From a virus, in IMG/VR virus record IMGVR_UViG_3300045988_023644, positions 1 to 47,150 of that record: 47,150 nucleotides of DNA; one strand, given 5' to 3'. A program made the position numbers and the translations under genes. Below, in pieces: positions 16,268 through 21,023 of this stretch. Position 1 is the stretch's first letter, and every line of letters starts with the position of its first letter. The notes beneath the pieces are model-generated. The model did not search any database. It was not told where the DNA came from and worked only from the letters and a program-made list of their open reading frames with translations.

Positions 16268-16541
16268 CGTGTTCCTCCTTCACCGCCACAGCCTTTGCCA
16301 GCTGTGCCATGCCCTTATTCATGTCCTCTATCTGCTTATCCCGCCGCGCAATGGTGTCCTTCAAACTGTCGTTGGCTTTCATCAGTGCCTCGATGTGCCG
16401 CTGCTGGTTCTCGATCAGGTCAGCGGCGTATCCCATCGCTTTTTCGATACATCCAAACTCGGCAATCAGAGGACACGATCCTTCGCATTTCTTATGCTGT
16501 TCGCAGCACCGCAGCGCGGTCACGATCTCATCTCTTGTCAT
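16251..16541 (-). CDS. Hypothetical coiled-coil protein
   Basis: Start at ATG 16541 (ATGA overlap with the Dam stop, RBS AAGGAGGAA). Confidence 0.6.
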   Translation of the reverse strand: MTRDEIVTALRCCEQHKKCEGSCPLIAEFGCIEKAMGYAADLIENQQRHIEALMKANDSLKDTIARRDKQIEDMNKGMAQLAKAVAVKEEHDGSVD

Positions 16542-16985
16542 GTCATTCCTCCTTGCCAAATGGCGATCATACTGGGAAACGGTGCCGTTCCCATCGGCTT
16601 TCCGTCCAGCTCGAATTTCAGCCGCCCGCGCAGAAAACGTATCTCTGCCTTACCCAGAATGTAGTCGTGAAAACTGGCACGGTCAGTCCGCGCTGGAATC
16701 AGCAGCACCACCGTTGTCCCCGGCTTCTGTCCCTCCCGCCAGCACTTCTCTGTCCACAGCCCGGTTTCCTTGCTTCCGTAGGGCGGGTTACAAAACACTG
16801 TTTCGCCCCCCCCAATTTTGCCGCAAACCATCATCGCTTTGCGTGAAATACCGCGCACACTTGTGGTTTTCGTCACTGGCGGCAGCGTCCAGCGTGAAAT
16901 GGAACTCCGCGTCCAGCTCGTCAAACAGCTTTTGCGGCGTTTCCCAGAAATTCTTATCGCTGGAAAACAAAGCGTCGTTTACCAT
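16538..16985 (-). pseudogene. dam: Phage Dam-type N6-adenine DNA methyltransferase, frameshifted at a G8 run
   Basis: The N-terminal frame ends ...GLRQNWGGRNSVL*. The other frame continues GGGETVFCNPPYGS. The C8 run at 16806-16813 (G8 on the coding strand) joins them if read as G7. Confidence 0.8.
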
Positions 16986-18877
16986 GTCATTCCTCCTGAA
17001 AAAATATCCCAGTCGCCTTTCTCACCTGACTTCTCATCGCCGAAATGCTTTTTGGTCACGGCAATGGGGAATTGCTCAATTTCAGAACTCCACCGGCAGC
17101 ACTCTGCTCCGTGTATTCTCGCCCAGCAGACATTAAACCCCGAAATGCCATCAAACAAGCTCCCCAGCGTCGCGTCCTCCGGCAAATACCGCGCCATGCG
17201 CCGCAGCATCCAGTCCCAGAAGGGAAGGGCGATGGAGTTGCCCAGCGCCTTGTACCGTGGGCTGTCCGCACTTCCTTTCACTTTTATTTCGCGCCCGCGT
17301 TTATCTGTTTTAACCCAATCTCCAATATCTGTCCATCCGTCTGGGAAACCTTGCAGCCGTTCGCATTCCATCGGTGTCAGGCGGCGCACGACCATGTTCT
17401 GGCGCACTGTGTTGTTTAGGTTCAAACTGGTTCCACCGCTTTCTTTCGCCTGTAACGTTCCGTTGAGTTCTCCACCCTCGGTAAAGTTCCGGCAATCCAC
17501 GCTGCTGCATATCAGGTCAGTGCCGTCCTTATAGTCCCGTTGTTTGCAGCTACTTGCACACTCGGCAGCGCGGTAATCACCGAAGCCGTTCATCTGGTAC
17601 GTCAGCGGCACTTGGTTTCCGCCCGTGCCAATCCTCGCCTGCAACGCCGGGACCTGCTCCCCACACTCACGGATGACGTAACAGGCGTGTGTCATGTCCA
17701 GTACCACGCACGACGGCACATGGGCGTTCGCGTTCAGTGTGTGGCACGGTTTGCCGAACTCAGGCTGACTTCCGTTCTCCTTGCTGGTGATCTGCGTGGT
17801 GTCAAATGCCATCGCCGCCGGAGCCACCACAGCTGGTTTATTCCCGCCGCACTCGGCGTTCAGTGTAGGGGACAGTTTCTCTTGATAGCCGATGCTCCTC
17901 GCCTGTTCACTGTTGCCCAGCTTAAACCCGGCACATAGCACAGCTTCGCGGTTCAGGCCACTGCTTTCACGGGAACTGAGCGTAGGCGAAACGCCGTCAC
18001 CATCGTATACGCGCTGGCTCTGCGCGTCCCCCGGATTCATGCACATTACTCCGTGGCGGTCGCCAGCGGTCAGTGTGGGGGACGGGTCTCCCTCTTTGCC
18101 GATGCCAAGACCGTTTCCGCTGCCGTCGTGGTTGCGGCTTTCACCGCCACCCTGCCATCTTGTAGCTTTGTCGTTGATGGGGATAGCCGCAAATATGGCA
18201 GGATTGTTCACACCACCGCCAACACCGCCTTGCAGTGTAGGAGATTTTCCGTTTATGTCAAAAATGCGCTTGCTTTGGCAATCCCAAGCCGTCATGCAGT
18301 CCCCGACTGCCGGATTAAAACCGCTTTCAGCAGCTTCGGCAAATCCTTCCCCCGCCTCTCCGCTCTCCGCAATATCCCCTGGCAGGCTTTTGGGGTCAAA
18401 TTGTATTTCGGATGCGGTGTCTCCTCCAAAATCTGCGACAACCGAGATACGACGGCGGCGTTGGGGCACTCCCCAGTATTGCGCGTCATGAGTTCGCCAC
18501 ACCACGCTCCATCGTCCTCCCATTTCATCGTGGTAGCCCCCCCAGGTAGGCCAACCCTTTTCAGGCACTTCAATACCGGGGGCTTCCGGCTCGACGATTT
18601 TGATGATCTCTTCGAGCACGGCTGCGAAGTCTTTTCCTTTGTTGCTGCTAAAGGCGCCGACCACGTTTTCCCACACGAGATACCGAGGTCTGACCATGTC
18701 ACCTGTCCGTCCATTCCTTTTGTCCGCCTCCCTCATTTCTTTTACGATGCGTACCTGCTCCATAAACAGGCCGCTCCGCGCTCCCGCCAAACCGGCGCGT
18801 TTCCCAGCGATGGATAGATCCTGTCTAACAAGGTGAACCACCTGTAATACACCAAACGGGATCAATCTCTGCCCCAT
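16979..18877 (-). CDS. C5-cytosine DNA methyltransferase, main ORF: motifs IV(part)-VI-VIII, multiple TRD-like repeats, IX-X, then motif I-II at the C-terminus
   Basis: QDLSIAGKRAGLAGARSGLF, YLVWENV, GVPQRRRR, repeated (S)PTL units, RLTPMECERLQGFPDGW, YKALGNS, then LGSLFDGISGF...SEIEQFPIAV. Confidence 0.85.
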   Translation of the reverse strand: MGQRLIPFGVLQVVHLVRQDLSIAGKRAGLAGARSGLFMEQVRIVKEMREADKRNGRTGDMVRPRYLVWENVVGAFSSNKGKDFAAVLEEIIKIVEPEAPGIEVPEKGWPTWGGYHDEMGGRWSVVWRTHDAQYWGVPQRRRRISVVADFGGDTASEIQFDPKSLPGDIAESGEAGEGFAEAAESGFNPAVGDCMTAWDCQSKRIFDINGKSPTLQGGVGGGVNNPAIFAAIPINDKATRWQGGGESRNHDGSGNGLGIGKEGDPSPTLTAGDRHGVMCMNPGDAQSQRVYDGDGVSPTLSSRESSGLNREAVLCAGFKLGNSEQARSIGYQEKLSPTLNAECGGNKPAVVAPAAMAFDTTQITSKENGSQPEFGKPCHTLNANAHVPSCVVLDMTHACYVIRECGEQVPALQARIGTGGNQVPLTYQMNGFGDYRAAECASSCKQRDYKDGTDLICSSVDCRNFTEGGELNGTLQAKESGGTSLNLNNTVRQNMVVRRLTPMECERLQGFPDGWTDIGDWVKTDKRGREIKVKGSADSPRYKALGNSIALPFWDWMLRRMARYLPEDATLGSLFDGISGFNVCWARIHGAECCRWSSEIEQFPIAVTKKHFGDEKSGEKGDWDIFSGGMTW

Positions 18878-18908
18878 TTATTTTCGTAATATCGCCTAAA
18901 TGTTTCAC
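18825..18908 (-). pseudogene. Detached N-terminal fragment of the C5 methyltransferase (MKHLGDITKINGAEIDPVWCITGGSPC, then TAG)
   Basis: GTG 18908 lies 6 nt after AGGAGGTG. Ends in the catalytic GGSPC followed by TAG (18825-18827). The next conserved residues QDLS are in another frame. Confidence 0.75.
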
Positions 18909-18920
18909 CTAAATCACCTC

Positions 18921-19196
18921 CTAATCTCCAAACACCACGCCGCACTCGTCCTTCAGCACGTCCTTGATGTGCTTCCGCTTGATGCGGCCTTCGTTGATCT
19001 CCTCCGCCAGCTTCTCAAGGCACTCGTACAGATACGCGATGCTCTGCGTATCCCGGCTGTCCGATGTCTCCTCGAATACGTGCCAGCCGCATTTGTCCAT
19101 CAGCACCATTGCCACCATGTCCATGTTCTCCCGTGTGCCTTGCAACTTGCCACGCATAAAAATGCGGTCGTCCCTGCTCAAATGCTGTTTACCCAT
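18921..19196 (-). CDS. Hypothetical protein
   Basis: 91 aa, RBS GAGGT. Confidence 0.6.
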   Translation of the reverse strand: MGKQHLSRDDRIFMRGKLQGTRENMDMVAMVLMDKCGWHVFEETSDSRDTQSIAYLYECLEKLAEEINEGRIKRKHIKDVLKDECGVVFGD

Positions 19197-19197
19197 C

Positions 19198-20271
19198 TCA
19201 ATACCTCACTCCGATGTAGTCCAGCACCCGCGCATAGCCAAGGCCGTCTTTCGTGGGTTTCCACAGCCCATCCGTGTCGAATGCCCCGCCGCCGATGCAG
19301 AATTGGTAGTGCTTCGGGTGCGTAAGTTTCATGCGTTCAAAGCGGTTTGTGCCTTTTTCAAGATGACTTCCAAATCCGCAGAACATGCAGCCCGTCCTCT
19401 GGCATCCCGTGCAGTGCAGATTGCAGTCGATCAGCGTCGCGCCGTAGTCGTTCTCGCCGTCGCTGGCTACGATGTCGCCATACACGCTGGCGTAGGGTAG
19501 TTGGTGGTCTACGATGAAGCGAAGCACATCCTGCTCCGTCCAGAAACTCATGGGCTTAGATAAGGGACGCCTTCCTTCAAAGGCGTTGCAGCCGGTTTCG
19601 CGCCATTTTTGCATCCGCAGAAGACTTTCCTCCGCCATTGTTGCCGTCGTGGGCTTGACATCCGCTCGGTGCTCATAGCTCTTTGACGGAGACTTTTTCA
19701 TAATTCCACAGCACTTGTCTGATATGAGAAATGGAGCCGAAAGCAAATACTCCCACTTTTCACAGTTGTACATACTCTTTTCCCCATCGGCGCGTAAGAC
19801 TTCCCCACGCAATAGTTTCATACTTCGGCTATCTGGTGAACGCCGCGCTGTTTCTATCCGGTGCGCTACGTCTTTACCGATGATGCTGTACCCGTACTTC
19901 GTCACCACCTGTCGAATGTTCATCTTCGGGCGCAGACGGTGGAGGTTGACGGTCACGCGGGGAAACTCCCTCCGCAGCCACGCGGCGTACTCATTCACGA
20001 ACTTCTGAATTTCAGGGTATTCCAGCCCTGTGTTCACAAATACCAGATTGAGCTCCCACGGCGGCGTCCTAAAACTCGCCAGATACCGCGCCGCCAGATA
20101 CGCCAGCACCGTGCTGTCCTTTCCGCCGGAGAAACTGACGTAGCACTGCCCGCCCCACGCAGTATACCACTCGTCCAGCTTTTCGTAGGTCAGTATCTCC
20201 TTGTCCTGCACGTCCAGCGCCATCAGTTTCTTCGCCACTTCATTCGTCAGCGGCTGATTTATCGGCAGCAT
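19198..20271 (-). CDS. PAPS reductase-family (PP-loop) protein, IbrA/DndC-like, with a C-terminal Cys cluster
   Basis: SFSGGKDS PP-loop. CNLHCTGCQRTGCMFCGFG. Confidence 0.8.
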   Translation of the reverse strand: MLPINQPLTNEVAKKLMALDVQDKEILTYEKLDEWYTAWGGQCYVSFSGGKDSTVLAYLAARYLASFRTPPWELNLVFVNTGLEYPEIQKFVNEYAAWLRREFPRVTVNLHRLRPKMNIRQVVTKYGYSIIGKDVAHRIETARRSPDSRSMKLLRGEVLRADGEKSMYNCEKWEYLLSAPFLISDKCCGIMKKSPSKSYEHRADVKPTTATMAEESLLRMQKWRETGCNAFEGRRPLSKPMSFWTEQDVLRFIVDHQLPYASVYGDIVASDGENDYGATLIDCNLHCTGCQRTGCMFCGFGSHLEKGTNRFERMKLTHPKHYQFCIGGGAFDTDGLWKPTKDGLGYARVLDYIGVRY

Positions 20272-21023
20272 TACTCAGCCTCCACCAACTTGCCCTTTAC
20301 CAGCTTATACCAAGTGTCCGCTCTGATGTCCGTGCCGTCTACGACAAACGCTTTCCACTCTTTGATGTCCCAATTGTCCGCGTTTTCCTCACAGATCACC
20401 AGAACAGCACCAAGACCGCCTTTAATCTTCACGTCGTTACCGCGAACAAGGCCGCATCCATTTTTGCCAACAGAAACAGTTCCTTTTGCGGTGGCTGCGC
20501 CGTAAGTGCCTGCGGTGGCTGCGCCGTAAGTGCCTGCGGCGGCTGCGCCGCTATCGCCTGCGGTGGCTGCGCCGCGATAGCCTGCGGTGGCTGCGCCGCG
20601 ATCGCCTGCGGTGGCTGCGCCGTAAGTGCCTGCGGTGGCTGCGCCGTAAGTGCCTGCGGTGGCTGCGCCGCGATCGCCTGCGGTGGCTGCTTTCTGGTCG
20701 GTATGTTCCATTGTGGTATGCGCCTTGACGTACTCAACGTGAGCCTTTACCAGCCCGGGAATACCGATCTCCGCGCCCACCGTAAGCTTCTTGGCAACGC
20801 GCTTGCTATCACCTCCGCGTTCGTCGCTCACGCCTTCCATTTCCACTTCGCAATACCGGCTTCCTTCGCCGGGCGCGTAATAACTGAACACATCCAACGG
20901 CGCTTCACAAGCGTGCAAGCCCTGATTGCACAGCTTCACTTTGTCAACTTCCTGCGTGCCGCCGATCTCATACTGCAAACCTCTGCACTGCAAATTCTTG
21001 TCAAAACCCTTGTATGCTTTCAT
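20271..21023 (-). CDS. DUF7666-like protein with an internal 8-residue tandem repeat (GAATAGxx)
   Basis: N-terminus KAYKGF..L.CRG.QYE.G.....LC..GLHAC, then 8.5 copies of a 24-nt repeat. Confidence 0.65.
   Translation of the reverse strand: MKAYKGFDKNLQCRGLQYEIGGTQEVDKVKLCNQGLHACEAPLDVFSYYAPGEGSRYCEVEMEGVSDERGGDSKRVAKKLTVGAEIGIPGLVKAHVEYVKAHTTMEHTDQKAATAGDRGAATAGTYGAATAGTYGAATAGDRGAATAGYRGAATAGDSGAAAAGTYGAATAGTYGAATAKGTVSVGKNGCGLVRGNDVKIKGGLGAVLVICEENADNWDIKEWKAFVVDGTDIRADTWYKLVKGKLVEAE
20487..20690. repeat. 8.5 x 24-bp tandem repeat (tgcggtggctgcgccgtaagtgcc and variants), in frame within 20271..21023
   Basis: Units start at 20487, 20511, 20535, 20559, 20583, 20607, 20631, 20655 and 20679. 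Confidence 0.95.

Follow-up and report, generated by a model that had tools for sequence, protein, structure and literature searches.

Natural circular permutation between motifs II and III in a family of predicted phage cytosine-5 methylases, with a putative recoding site inside the catalytic motif

The window, that is, the whole 47,150-nucleotide stretch analysed here (IMG/VR record IMGVR_UViG_3300045988_023644), is the genome of a temperate, tailed phage and includes genes for terminase, portal, tape measure and integrase proteins. Relatives are found in Clostridia/Oscillospiraceae MAGs and in Faecalibacterium phages, and the window methylase is a gut-phage gene. It lies on the minus strand, as do all of the features described below, and opens with a GTG start codon (18906–18908) that is preceded by the strong Shine-Dalgarno sequence AGGAGGTGAT, read directly at 18913–18922. 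The first 27 codons, MKHLGDITKINGAEIDPVWCITGGSPC (18828–18908), align to GDI...GFPC of M.HhaI and comprise the GTG, motif III (LGDI, 18888–18899) and the GGSPC half of motif IV, the last residue of which, Cys27, is the putative catalytic nucleophile. A TAG stop (18825–18827) follows directly after Cys27. Together with the next base it forms a clean 4-nt insertion, TAGA (18824–18827), between the TGT (Cys) and CAG (Gln) codons of PCQ, so that the remainder of the gene lies in the +1 frame. This main reading frame extends for 614 further codons (16982–18823), from QDLS, the rest of motif IV, through motif II to a tail, with its stop at 16979–16981, and is identical to the database protein P0001 from residue 19 onward. 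A first-pass annotation had described one gene from start to end; the motif segments that it listed, with their coordinates, and the GTG at 18908 with its ribosome-binding site are all present in the sequence, but the gene is in two parts, divided by the TAG, rather than a single ORF. The interruption had been implied there only by the words 'repaired gene'.

In the main frame, motif VI (RPRYLVWENV, 18662–18691; ENV invariant in the family alignments) and motif VIII (QxRxR; GVPQRRRRISVVADFGG, 18422–18472, aligned to GIPQKRERI of M.HhaI) are followed by a variable region at 17399–18298, corresponding to residues 203–502 of the repaired protein. The region holds eight TL-type recognition modules: M1 (18191–18298), M2 (18044–18190), M3 (17936–18043), M4 (17825–17935), M5 (17702–17824), M6 (17594–17701), M7 (17504–17593) and M8 (17399–17503). 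Next come motif IX, VVRRLTPMECERLQGFPDGW (17333–17392; aligned to RRLTVRECARVQGFPDDF of M.HaeIII), and motif X, RYKALGNSIALPFWDWMLRRM (17195–17257). The WENV, PQRRRR, RRLTPMECERLQGFPDGW and YKALGNS cores of motifs VI, VIII, IX and X are all present and are invariant across the family. Only then, in the same frame as motifs IX and X, does the AdoMet-binding segment appear (17033–17167), with motif I (LGSLFDGISGF, 17135–17167) and motif II (SSEIEQFPIAVTKKHFGDE / WSSEIEQFPIAVTKKHFGDE, 17033–17092), and the protein ends in an acidic, subgroup-specific tail, KSGEKGDWDIFSGGMTW (16982–17032). The motif order is thus III-IV-VI-VIII, eight modules, IX-X, I-II.

The last codons of the tail overlap the ATG of the adjoining gene (16538–16985), which encodes a Dam-type N6-adenine methylase (PF05869); the idea that the C-terminal I-II segment belongs to a separate downstream gene was therefore rejected. 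The Dam-type gene is frameshifted at a G8 tract (16806–16813), and some decay of the methylase module is accordingly possible in the window. L209 and L211 have the same G8, whereas in L210 and six further contexts the tract is G7 and in frame. The C5 gene carries a tract of its own between motifs VI and VIII, which in the window is an in-frame G7 (18537–18543), whereas Faecalibacterium phage FP_Toutatis has G9 and phage Lelie G14 at the homologous position, the two being otherwise 99.9% identical (1 SNP in 1.6 kb). Differences in homopolymer length of the kind associated with phase variation are therefore present at both genes. Across the family, the poly-G tracts are hypervariable.

A further ORF of 140 amino acids (MDGQ...SRLSQILEE...KACQGILRRAERRGKDLPKLL...), termed ORF B, is embedded in the +1 frame over motifs VI–VIII and the linker (18292–18714). 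Its frame is open for at least 142 codons in all 132 unique relatives, whereas the median for the third frame is 39 codons, and over the conserved part of ORF B the methylase frame shows suppressed synonymous variation. The ORF is also present in relatives with the canonical motif order.

The window gene is predicted to encode a DNA cytosine-5 methyltransferase, presumably with catalytic activity. The 632-residue ORF scores 76.5 bits against PF00145 (cut-off 22), the profile comparison that had been proposed as a check on the assignment; the score against TIGR00675 (71 bits) is under the cut-off of 100.65, as would be expected of a split and reordered match. When the sequence is un-permuted by placing motifs I–II before the N-terminus, it aligns in one stretch to residues 16–112 of M.HhaI (E ~3e-12), matching the landmarks F18-x-G-x-G-G-F, E40, GDI and PCQ, and so the C-terminal segment from LFDGISGF to SEIE is colinear with motifs I–II, as had been claimed. 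Within it, LFDGISGF corresponds to F18-AGLGGF of M.HhaI and SEIE to NEWD (E40); the second Gly of motif I is Ser in the window copy and Gly or Ala in relatives. GGSPC and QDLS, which are split by TAG+A in the window, form a contiguous PCQ in intact family members. An AlphaFold2 (AF2) model, as called for by the first-pass annotation, was obtained for family member P0168 (pTM 0.69), in which the core and the C-terminal segment have pLDDT values of 81–97 and the I–II segment itself is folded as strand-helix-strand-helix (pLDDT 87–97). Its best structural matches are M.HhaI, M.HaeIII, DRM and DNMT1. No fold was resolved across the TRD region as a whole in the P0168 model, and AF2 applied to the closest intact homolog gave no usable model (pLDDT 31).

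The C5 methylases are the textbook example of conserved motif order. Nevertheless, motif I follows motif X in every one of the 120 best database hits, with PCQ near residue 25 and motif I 40–60 residues from the C-terminus; in each, the N-terminus lies between motifs II and III, a Type B permutation. A search for homologs of the same order with a IX-X-I-II junction probe returned 637 clusters (50% identity) at E<=1e-30, and each of the 150 cluster representatives listed aligned to the probe as a single stretch without a break. The permuted order is therefore a family trait, as the initial interpretation required, and not a one-off rearrangement of a canonical gene, an order that none of the 120 best homologs retains. 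The data point to a large natural family of circularly permuted phage C5 methylases. The initial comparison with a beta-class topology holds in that a catalytic block, TRDs and an AdoMet block succeed one another, but motif III stays at the N-terminus. The proposal that KH(F/L)GD at both termini is the footprint of a duplication did not survive alignment: HFGDE and KHLGDI match adjacent, different segments of M.HhaI, the join FGDE|KHLGDI corresponding to NFGE|KPEGDI with one gap. In other family members the C-terminal end reads KKWFGEE or KKHFPEEE, unlike the HFGDE of the window, and in a tandem-fused relative the two segments stand side by side as TRFPG-MKHLGDI.

The modules of the variable region behave like cassettes, in keeping with multi-TRD enzymes. 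Among the 120 homologs, the module boundaries coincide with the edges of whole-module deletions and insertions: some relatives individually lack M3, M3+M4, M5 or M8, and further units have been inserted at these same positions. Individual modules also occur in unrelated phage C5 methylases, where their identity exceeds that of the core; M2, for instance, shares 68% identity with the variable region in the C5 methylase of Vibrio phage CP-T1. No Bacillus phage sequence was matched among the best hits. The family repertoire comprises at least 12 module types. The TL-type units of the first-pass annotation are therefore borne out, although they number eight and not five, and the window enzyme is probably multispecific.

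The interruption is likewise shared. The shift site, GGTGGTTCACCTTGT-TAG-A in the window (18824–18842), is present in 42 of 83 loci, or about half of the permuted family, and at least 119 IMG/VR loci carry it, all of the permuted family and 106 of them with exactly GGTGGTTCACCTTGTTAG; the identical interrupted ORF recurs in independent samples and assemblies. Some 45 diverged N-terminal peptide lineages have GGTGGTTCACCTTGT-TAG-[A/C/T] in nearly invariant form. A conserved GGTGGTTCACC block accompanies the TGT and TAG; TGT, a wobble-read codon, encodes the Cys throughout, and the base directly after TAG, the fourth of the insertion, is never G. Neither TAA nor TGA in place of TAG, nor AGY-Ser variants of the block, were found among the shift-site alleles, and the codon block never occurs together with an intact PCQ within the permuted family. 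Across 34 non-redundant haplotypes, a single codon accounts for 82–100% at the GGSPC positions, compared with 35–79% for flanking conserved residues, while the intact alleles mostly use GGC GGC AGC CCG TGC. All 34 of these haplotypes have a strong Shine-Dalgarno sequence and a GTG start; the intact alleles start with ATG or TTG, and their ribosome-binding sequences are mostly weaker. Downstream of the site, the ORF is full length in 37 of the 42 shift-site loci, as against 36 of 41 intact alleles, and the IX-X-I-II region is under purifying selection (dN/dS 0.12, dS ~1.4, 24 shift-site lineages). Interrupted and intact alleles are near-identical 3′ of the site and differ in the 81 nt 5′ of it, which makes the site a mosaic boundary at which recombination is active; recombination with intact alleles could contribute to the low dN/dS. 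Covariation was weak for either candidate RNA helix (shuffle p 0.03–0.06).

On this evidence, the interruption is not random damage, and the implied need for repair can probably be set aside: the site is conserved and is likely to be a functional recoding site, the best reading being a putative programmed +1 frameshift. Like the prfB site, it presents an in-frame stop at a nucleotide-conserved position with the downstream frame under protein-level selection. The prfB-type re-pairing and spacing are lacking, however: a +1 move takes UGU to GUU, on which tRNA-Cys cannot re-pair, and GGUGGU ends 6 nt before UGU, not 3.

It is probable, therefore, judging from sequence comparison, that the window gene belongs to a natural, Type B, multi-module family of phage C5 methylases, the interrupted copies of which would be read by a +1 shift at UGU-UAG-A. 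Motifs I–II are joined directly to the motif X helix at the C-terminus, and the C-terminal strand-helix-strand-helix would take its normal place in the Rossmann-type core, so that the protein would be expected to work as an ordinary C5 methylase. Cys27 would attack C6 of the flipped-out cytosine, with the methyl group coming from AdoMet. With many modules, one enzyme could methylate many different short sequences, and such methylation may shield the DNA of the temperate phage from the restriction systems of its Clostridia/Oscillospiraceae hosts. Full-length enzyme would need the ribosome to move +1 at UGU-UAG-A, and the product would read ...GGSPC-R-QDLS.... We know of no C5 methylase with an extra residue between the catalytic Cys and the conserved Gln, and the inserted Arg (Ser in TAGC/TAGT alleles) might inactivate the enzyme. 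If the frameshift occurs, UAG-N would most likely act as an inefficient gate that limits a promiscuous and potentially harmful methylase. A more ambitious proposal, to which we give slightly less than an even chance, is that UCA-CCU-UGU-UAG-N, 27 codons from the GUG and inside PCQ, is a new programmed +1 recoding signal that gates a hyper-multispecific enzyme, and that the ORF overprinted on motifs VI–VIII is coding and conserved from the canonical Streptococcus and Izemoplasmatales genes to the permuted family. One gene would then combine Type B permutation, recoding, dual coding and homopolymer phase variation.

The mosaic boundary and active recombination at the shift site would also be expected if the TAG-N copies were null 'off' alleles, favoured under methylation-dependent restriction, with their 3′ parts kept by recombination with 'on' alleles. 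On/off-like poly-G variation does occur elsewhere in the family, and a one-residue insertion after the catalytic Cys could inactivate the enzyme in any case. We nevertheless regard null alleles as unlikely, since five codons are fixed even at their synonymous positions, as are the TAG and the TGT, while flanking synonymous sites have been randomised over ~45 lineages, and secondary lesions are not commoner than in intact alleles. Nor does the explanation give any reason for the absence of TAA and TGA, or for a 27-codon leader that keeps its start, GD(I/V) and GGSPC.

A second possibility, which we consider quite improbable, is that the 27-codon ORF is a regulatory leader and that the downstream ORF reinitiates at the GUG in GGUGGU, giving a Cys-less MVHLVRQDLS... 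protein that binds DNA through its TRDs without methylating it or is joined non-covalently to the 27-mer. That GUG is in the downstream frame, 12 nt before the TAG and inside the invariant block, and in one subfamily it is the sole possible start because stops precede it, yet no Shine-Dalgarno sequence lies ahead of it. Pairing of UUCACCU is possible either with AGGUGAA in the start-codon region or with the GGUG close by, an arrangement reminiscent of attenuators; the conserved Cys codon and GGSPC, on the other hand, argue that the leader is part of the enzyme, and the downstream catalytic motifs VI and VIII are still strongly constrained. Split C5 methylases do occur, both natural and engineered (PMC5944983). 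Reinitiation, however, would cut directly behind the nucleophile and leave it on a 27-residue peptide, unlike any functional split known to us; those separate motif VIII from the TRD, or motif II from motif III.

It is more doubtful again that the conserved 18–22 nt block is a DNA-level target of recombination or of a nuclease for exchange of the 5′ cassette, the frame break being a by-product. The mosaic boundary falls exactly at the shift site, and mobile insertions do occur at other places in genes of the family (in P0125 an intein-like insert follows ENV, and in L130 motif IX contains an insert with HNH), but the site has no associated recombinase, repeat or inverted repeat partner, the downstream ORF has been preserved, and the restriction to TAG, to TGT and to a fourth base other than G is of a translational type. 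Finally, the suggestion that the window copy is a pseudogene, rearranged or decayed in this one case, or a product of faulty assembly, to which the in-frame stop after 27 codons and the frameshift in the adjoining Dam-type gene might point, is refuted almost entirely by the motif order, which all close homologs and hundreds of clusters share, the same interruption in at least 119 viral contigs, the identical ORF in independent assemblies and the intact-PCQ versions in cultured Faecalibacterium phages.

If the preferred reading of a programmed +1 shift reflects a true frameshift signal, TAG-N would be a new bacterial recoding motif and a new means of dosing a toxic DNA-modifying enzyme, and annotation pipelines would be miscalling about half of these genes as truncated. 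If ORF B is expressed, it would rank among the rare well-supported examples of long dual coding on one strand in bacteria and phages. Eight or more swappable modules would make this an extreme case of phage anti-restriction, and the module set would provide a ready kit for matching TRD sequences to DNA targets.

Among known systems, contiguous, cassette-like TRD units between motifs VIII and IX are shared with the SPR-type enzymes. M.SPRI, M.Phi3TI, M.Rho11sI and M.H2I are Bacillus phage orphan C5 methylases with contiguous TRDs of ~40 residues and a TL core between motifs VIII and IX, and their presumed role is protection from a wide range of host restriction systems. They have three to five TRDs and the canonical I–X order, whereas the window enzyme is permuted and has eight. 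The canonical-order relatives in a Streptococcus prophage (Javan422, QBX27888) and an Izemoplasmatales MAG (L006) are ~40–56% identical to the window family over motifs III–VIII, and share with it the II–III junction sequence TRKNLPEVKHLGNI and the embedded +1-frame ORF; unlike the window gene, they have motifs I–II at the N-terminus and are without the TAG-N site. The site itself resembles prfB (RF2) in having an in-frame stop in the A-site, a weak-termination context, a conserved position early in the gene and an SD-like G-rich element upstream. It differs in that the stop is UAG, read by RF1, rather than UGA, the SD-like spacing is 6 nt rather than 3 nt and UGU cannot re-pair in +1; moreover, it is without obvious autoregulatory logic and lies inside a catalytic motif, to which it would add one residue. 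The two-subunit M.AquI finds a likeness in the L100/L111 lineage of the family, which is split by a stop, followed by a Shine-Dalgarno sequence and a start, after the first TRD module. That split lies inside the TRD array of a permuted enzyme, whereas in the window everything beyond the shift site is encoded as one chain.

Rearranged C5 motifs are also a feature of plant DRM2/ntDRM, the structure of which matches the P0168 model. The DRM breakpoint differs, giving VI–X and then I–V, and the DRM enzymes are eukaryotic, with a single specificity context and no TRD array. In the Type H/J group (M.BssHII, M.Alw26I, M2.Eco31I, M.Esp3I and M2.BsaI), which is also natural, motif X likewise precedes motif I, and an origin by duplication and then truncation is presumed, as a further likeness to the window family. 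As initially noted, these known permuted enzymes break elsewhere: the Type H/J break is in the variable region (IX-X-I-VIII) and thus leaves both structural domains intact, whereas the window family has an internal variable region, starts at motif III and is cut inside the AdoMet-binding half of the large domain. The closest counterparts are laboratory enzymes from the only systematic permutation study of C5 methylases, in which the engineered Type B permutants were the most active of all engineered topologies (Slaska-Kiss et al. 2018, PMC5944983). cp62M.MpeI, with approximately wild-type activity, and cp58M.SssI share exactly the II/III breakpoint with the window family, together with the motif X helix fused straight to motif I and the order III-X-I-II (PMC5944983); evolved cpM.HaeIII variants, at least those of the first group cited there, have the same Type B topology. 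The same authors stated, with surprise, that the II/III breakpoint is absent from nature and offered weaker AdoMet binding as the reason (PMC5944983), which agrees with the first-pass view that the architecture was undescribed; the block order of this natural gene has so far been known only from engineered enzymes. Hundreds of gut-phage clusters now answer that surprise by using the breakpoint in nature, and the idea of weaker AdoMet binding becomes testable on natural proteins. The engineered enzymes are single-TRD and CG- or GGCC-specific, whereas the window family is natural, abundant and multi-TRD, with the recoding site in half of its members.

The C5-cytosine methylase gene lies on the minus strand of the window and is read from a GTG start at 18906-18908, preceded by a perfect Shine-Dalgarno (SD) sequence, AGGAGGTGAT, at 18913-18922. 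Translation from the GTG yields MKHLGDITKINGAEIDPVWCITGGSPC and then meets a TAG stop at 18825-18827, while mechanical listing of open reading frames returns a 632-residue ORF in the +1 frame (16979-18877, minus strand), in which the second half of motif IV, QDLSIAGKRAGL..., begins at residue 19. Set against its intact relatives, the gene has a clean 4-nt insertion, TAGA, that separates the TGT (Cys) codon from the CAG (Gln) codon. Without the insertion the methylase comprises 641 residues, in which motif III (LGDI) comes first and is followed by motifs IV (GGSPCQDLS), VI (WENV) and VIII (PQRRRR), a variable region of 300 residues, motifs IX (RRLTPMECERLQGFPDGW) and X (YKALGNS), and only then motifs I (LGSLFDGISGF) and II (SSEIEQFPIAVTKKHFGDE), with a tail of 17 residues completing the C-terminus.

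The origin of the C-terminal segment was examined with an 'un-permuted' construct, in which the segment was moved ahead of the N-terminus and the product searched against PDB sequences. The construct aligned in one stretch to residues 16-112 of M.HhaI (E about 3e-12), with matches at FxGxGGF, the motif II Glu, FGDE|KHLGDI (FGE|KPEGDI in M.HhaI) and PCQ, which identifies the segment as motifs I-II, as the first-pass annotation had claimed. Nor does the segment belong to a separate downstream gene, since the gene found there, which encodes a Dam-type N6-adenine methylase (PF05869; 16538-16985, minus strand) and whose ATG overlaps the C5 stop, is distinct. Searched against 5.8 billion proteins, the repaired methylase gave 120 listed matches (64-100% identity, 514-687 aa), and in all 120 PCQ or QxRxR lies close to the N-terminus, with 40-60 residues separating motif I from the C-terminus. 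A 122-residue junction probe spanning IX-X-I-II, searched against 1.84 billion 50%-identity representatives, identified 637 clusters at E<=1e-30 and aligned unbroken in 150 of the 150 cluster matches listed. The permutation is thus the defining trait of a large methylase family as opposed to a one-off rearrangement, and the initial reading of the gene as a permuted C5 methylase stands.

Canonical-order relatives with the same II-III junction sequence are represented by the methylase of Streptococcus prophage Javan422 and by locus L006. In two cluster representatives, P0146 and P0150, a pair of permuted copies is joined in tandem and in frame (...X-I-II-TRFPG-MKHLGDI-III-IV...), which recreates a canonical I-X unit across the junction; such fusions are the intermediate expected under a duplication-truncation model. 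The KH(F/L)GD strings at the two termini, previously taken as the footprint of a duplication, are instead adjacent segments of the canonical loop, as is apparent from both the M.HhaI alignment and the tandem fusions.

The AlphaFold (AF2) model of P0002, the closest intact homolog, was unusable (pLDDT 31) because the alignment of 51 close relatives was too shallow, and a shorter, more diverse set took its place. The second AF2 model, of P0168, the shortest full-length member (405 aa), was prepared with 28 diverse relatives and has a pTM of 0.69, with the core and the C-terminal segment at pLDDT 81-97. The C-terminal segment is predicted to fold as strand-helix-strand-helix, as motifs I-II should, while the TRD region of the P0168 model is without a resolved fold. 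Foldseek searches with the model retrieved M.HhaI, M.HaeIII, ZMET2, DRM and DNMT1 at probability 1.0; the alignments were partial, as expected, because the method is order-dependent and the chain is permuted.

Module boundaries within the variable region were derived from pairwise alignments with the 120 homologs. Whole segments are deleted at recurrent boundaries (residues 288-323, 288-360, about 361-401 and 468-502), and other units, for example RIRGGCDGGGKGALVQTEKSGTLGTGNDQTIF and CMATQQGGAELRTDDRAPTLTAAAGMSGNNQPV, are inserted at similar boundaries in homologs. Because these whole-segment indels share recurrent boundaries, the region could be divided into eight units (M1-M8) of 30-49 residues each, raising the earlier count of 'at least five' TL-type units. 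An x-T/A-L-x core is present in seven of the eight, M7 having ASSCKQRDYKD there instead. Single units also turn up in unrelated C5 methylases, within their variable regions, and M2 is 68% identical to a segment from Vibrio phage CP-T1, compared with about 35% for the cores. A search of the variable region against PDB sequences matched motif IX of M.HaeIII alone, and consequently no TRD was matched to a known specificity. The organisation is that of the multispecific phage methylases, with specificity itself being predicted. To our knowledge, the window's gene has more units than any Bacillus enzyme known.

Next, the interruption after Cys27 was considered, which the first-pass annotation had only implied by speaking of a 'repaired gene'; it proves to be conserved rather than accidental. 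Among 83 related loci, 42 have a TAG-N allele, i.e. TAG plus one base between TGT and CAG, and 41 an intact PCQ, the downstream ORF being full length in 37/42 of the former and 36/41 of the latter. A search of IMG/VR with a degenerate pattern permitting any synonymous codon for GGSPC matched at least 119 loci, each of them carrying the permuted N-terminus of 27 codons, which span about 45 N-terminal peptide lineages and include exact GGTGGTTCACCTTGTTAG in 106 cases. TAG is never followed by G, the next base being A, C or T; no variants with TAA or TGA in place of TAG were found, and none with AGY-Ser in the GGSPC block. Across 34 non-redundant haplotypes, each codon of GGT GGT TCA CCT TGT is 82-100% fixed, whereas the commonest codon at flanking conserved residues accounts for just 35-79%; the usual codons of intact alleles are GGC GGC AGC CCG TGC. 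The same block followed by an intact CAG was found only in nine unrelated canonical methylases and never in the permuted family. Every TAG-N allele starts with GTG behind a strong SD, independent samples contain the identical interrupted ORF, and in the IX-X-I-II region of 24 TAG-N lineages the median dS is 1.39 and dN 0.17 (dN/dS 0.12). Taken together, these observations argue that both frames are read as protein and that the TAG-N site is under nucleotide-level selection. The allele was not found in the GenBank collection of cultured phages, but only in uncultured human faecal phages. Codon 3 of TAG-N alleles is CAT in 34/34 (18906-18898 in the window, and related loci) and codon 8, if Cys, is TGC in 18/18, which hints at a further nucleotide-level constraint near the start.

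The interruption is probably a conserved recoding site, and a programmed +1 frameshift seems the likeliest event. In the simplest mechanism, the shift would take place while UGU occupies the P site and UAG, which is RF1-specific, the A site; AGA, AGC or AGU would be decoded next, and the product would read PC-(R/S)-QDLS. Consistent with a shift, the fourth base gives weak termination, the P-site codon is wobble-read, the nascent chain has Pro at position -2 and an SD-like G-rich element is located upstream; ribosome queuing would, moreover, be promoted by a leader so short and so heavily initiated. Conversely, GUU permits no re-pairing, the spacing of the site differs from that in prfB, and an additional residue would follow the nucleophile. 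Long-range and local RNA helices are possible, with UUCACCU pairing with AGGUGAA in the start region or GGUG with CACC, although covariation is weak. Reassignment of TAG (code 15) or read-through was rejected, given that in-frame reading leads to unrelated sequence and an early stop; the window contains no tRNA genes. A slipped-strand origin, or reversal, of TAGA is ruled out because the site is without a repeat, and a TAGA/TCTA mini-hairpin is not conserved by TAGC alleles. Literature searches returned nothing relevant on frameshifting in phage cytosine methylases.

Embedded in the +1 frame of the methylase gene, a candidate overprinted ORF of 140 codons (18292-18714, minus strand) covers motifs VI-VIII together with the linker. 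All 132 unique relatives keep this frame open over 142 codons or more, as against a median of 39 for the third frame. The C-terminal 50 residues of its putative product (LS.IL...KY.LS.KAC.GIL.RA..RGK.LP..L) are conserved above the methylase frame on the same DNA, where synonymous variation in the methylase frame collapses (commonest-codon fraction 0.83-0.99 versus 0.52-0.59 upstream). The ORF is found also in canonical methylase genes, in the Javan422 prophage of a Streptococcus isolate and in an Izemoplasmatales MAG (L006), and matches 5,951 or more database clusters, most of them 'hypothetical proteins' of 140-177 aa, with no match in Pfam, PHROGs, NCBIfam or PDB. It is presented as a candidate overprinted gene.

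Between motifs VI and VIII the C5 gene contains a poly-G tract, G7 and in frame in the window (18537-18543, minus strand). In the cultured Faecalibacterium phages FP_Toutatis (L207) and Lelie (L208) the PCQ of the permuted gene is intact, and over 1.6 kb the two differ by one SNP (99.9% identity) and by tract length (G9 versus G14), the tract being out of frame in both. About 8% of unique relatives are frame-shifted here, such that the upstream methylase frame enters that of the embedded ORF. A second tract marks the start of TRD module SYAVRIRGGCDGGGKG, which is absent from the window (L082, L130, L200, L102); a G7 tract puts the methylase frame in phase with the TRDs and a G8 tract the embedded ORF's frame, the latter in about 19% of unique sequences. 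Many database 'proteins' (P0127, P0248 and others) are embedded-ORF/TRD fusions. The Dam-type gene of the window is out of frame owing to G8 at 16806-16813, whereas in a related phage genome from another sample with an identical C5 ORF (L210) the tract is G7 and the gene, of 148 aa, is intact; G7 occurs in six further contexts and G8 in two others. The difference suggests phase variation, with homopolymer sequencing error an alternative.

The window, the genome of a temperate tailed phage, encodes terminase, portal, major head, tape measure, integrase and a DnaC-like loader, and the methylase module is flanked by replication genes and the terminase. Its upstream neighbours, both on the minus strand, encode a PAPS-reductase-like protein (phrog_424; 19198-20271) and a protein in which GAATAG(D/T/Y)(R/Y) is repeated in a long tandem array (phrog_4433; 20271-21023). 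Among relatives, the ENV of motif VI in P0125 is immediately followed by an intein-like insertion of about 340 residues (columns 88-426 of the family alignment), and motif IX of L130 is interrupted, in frame, by about 190 residues that resemble an HNH endonuclease. The permuted gene of one lineage (L100 and L111, on contigs of about 130 kb) is broken by a TAA past the first TRD module, behind which come an SD and a TTG start that keep the frame; the enzyme would then consist of two subunits, in a manner reminiscent of M.AquI.

Slaska-Kiss et al. (2018; PMC5944983) engineered permutants of M.MpeI and M.SssI and found activity to be by far the highest in the 'Type B' variants, whose chain begins between motifs II and III; cp62M.MpeI was comparable to wild type. 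In their screen of 20,677 REBASE entries they recovered 27 natural C5 methylases with a permuted order, each with its breakpoint in the variable region. Our literature search found no later report of a natural Type B C5 methylase, and permuted C5 enzymes are not discussed in a classification preprint (10.1101/2023.12.13.571470). As the breakpoint here falls between motifs II and III, the window's methylase family is a natural Type B permutation, sharing its breakpoint with the engineered enzymes.
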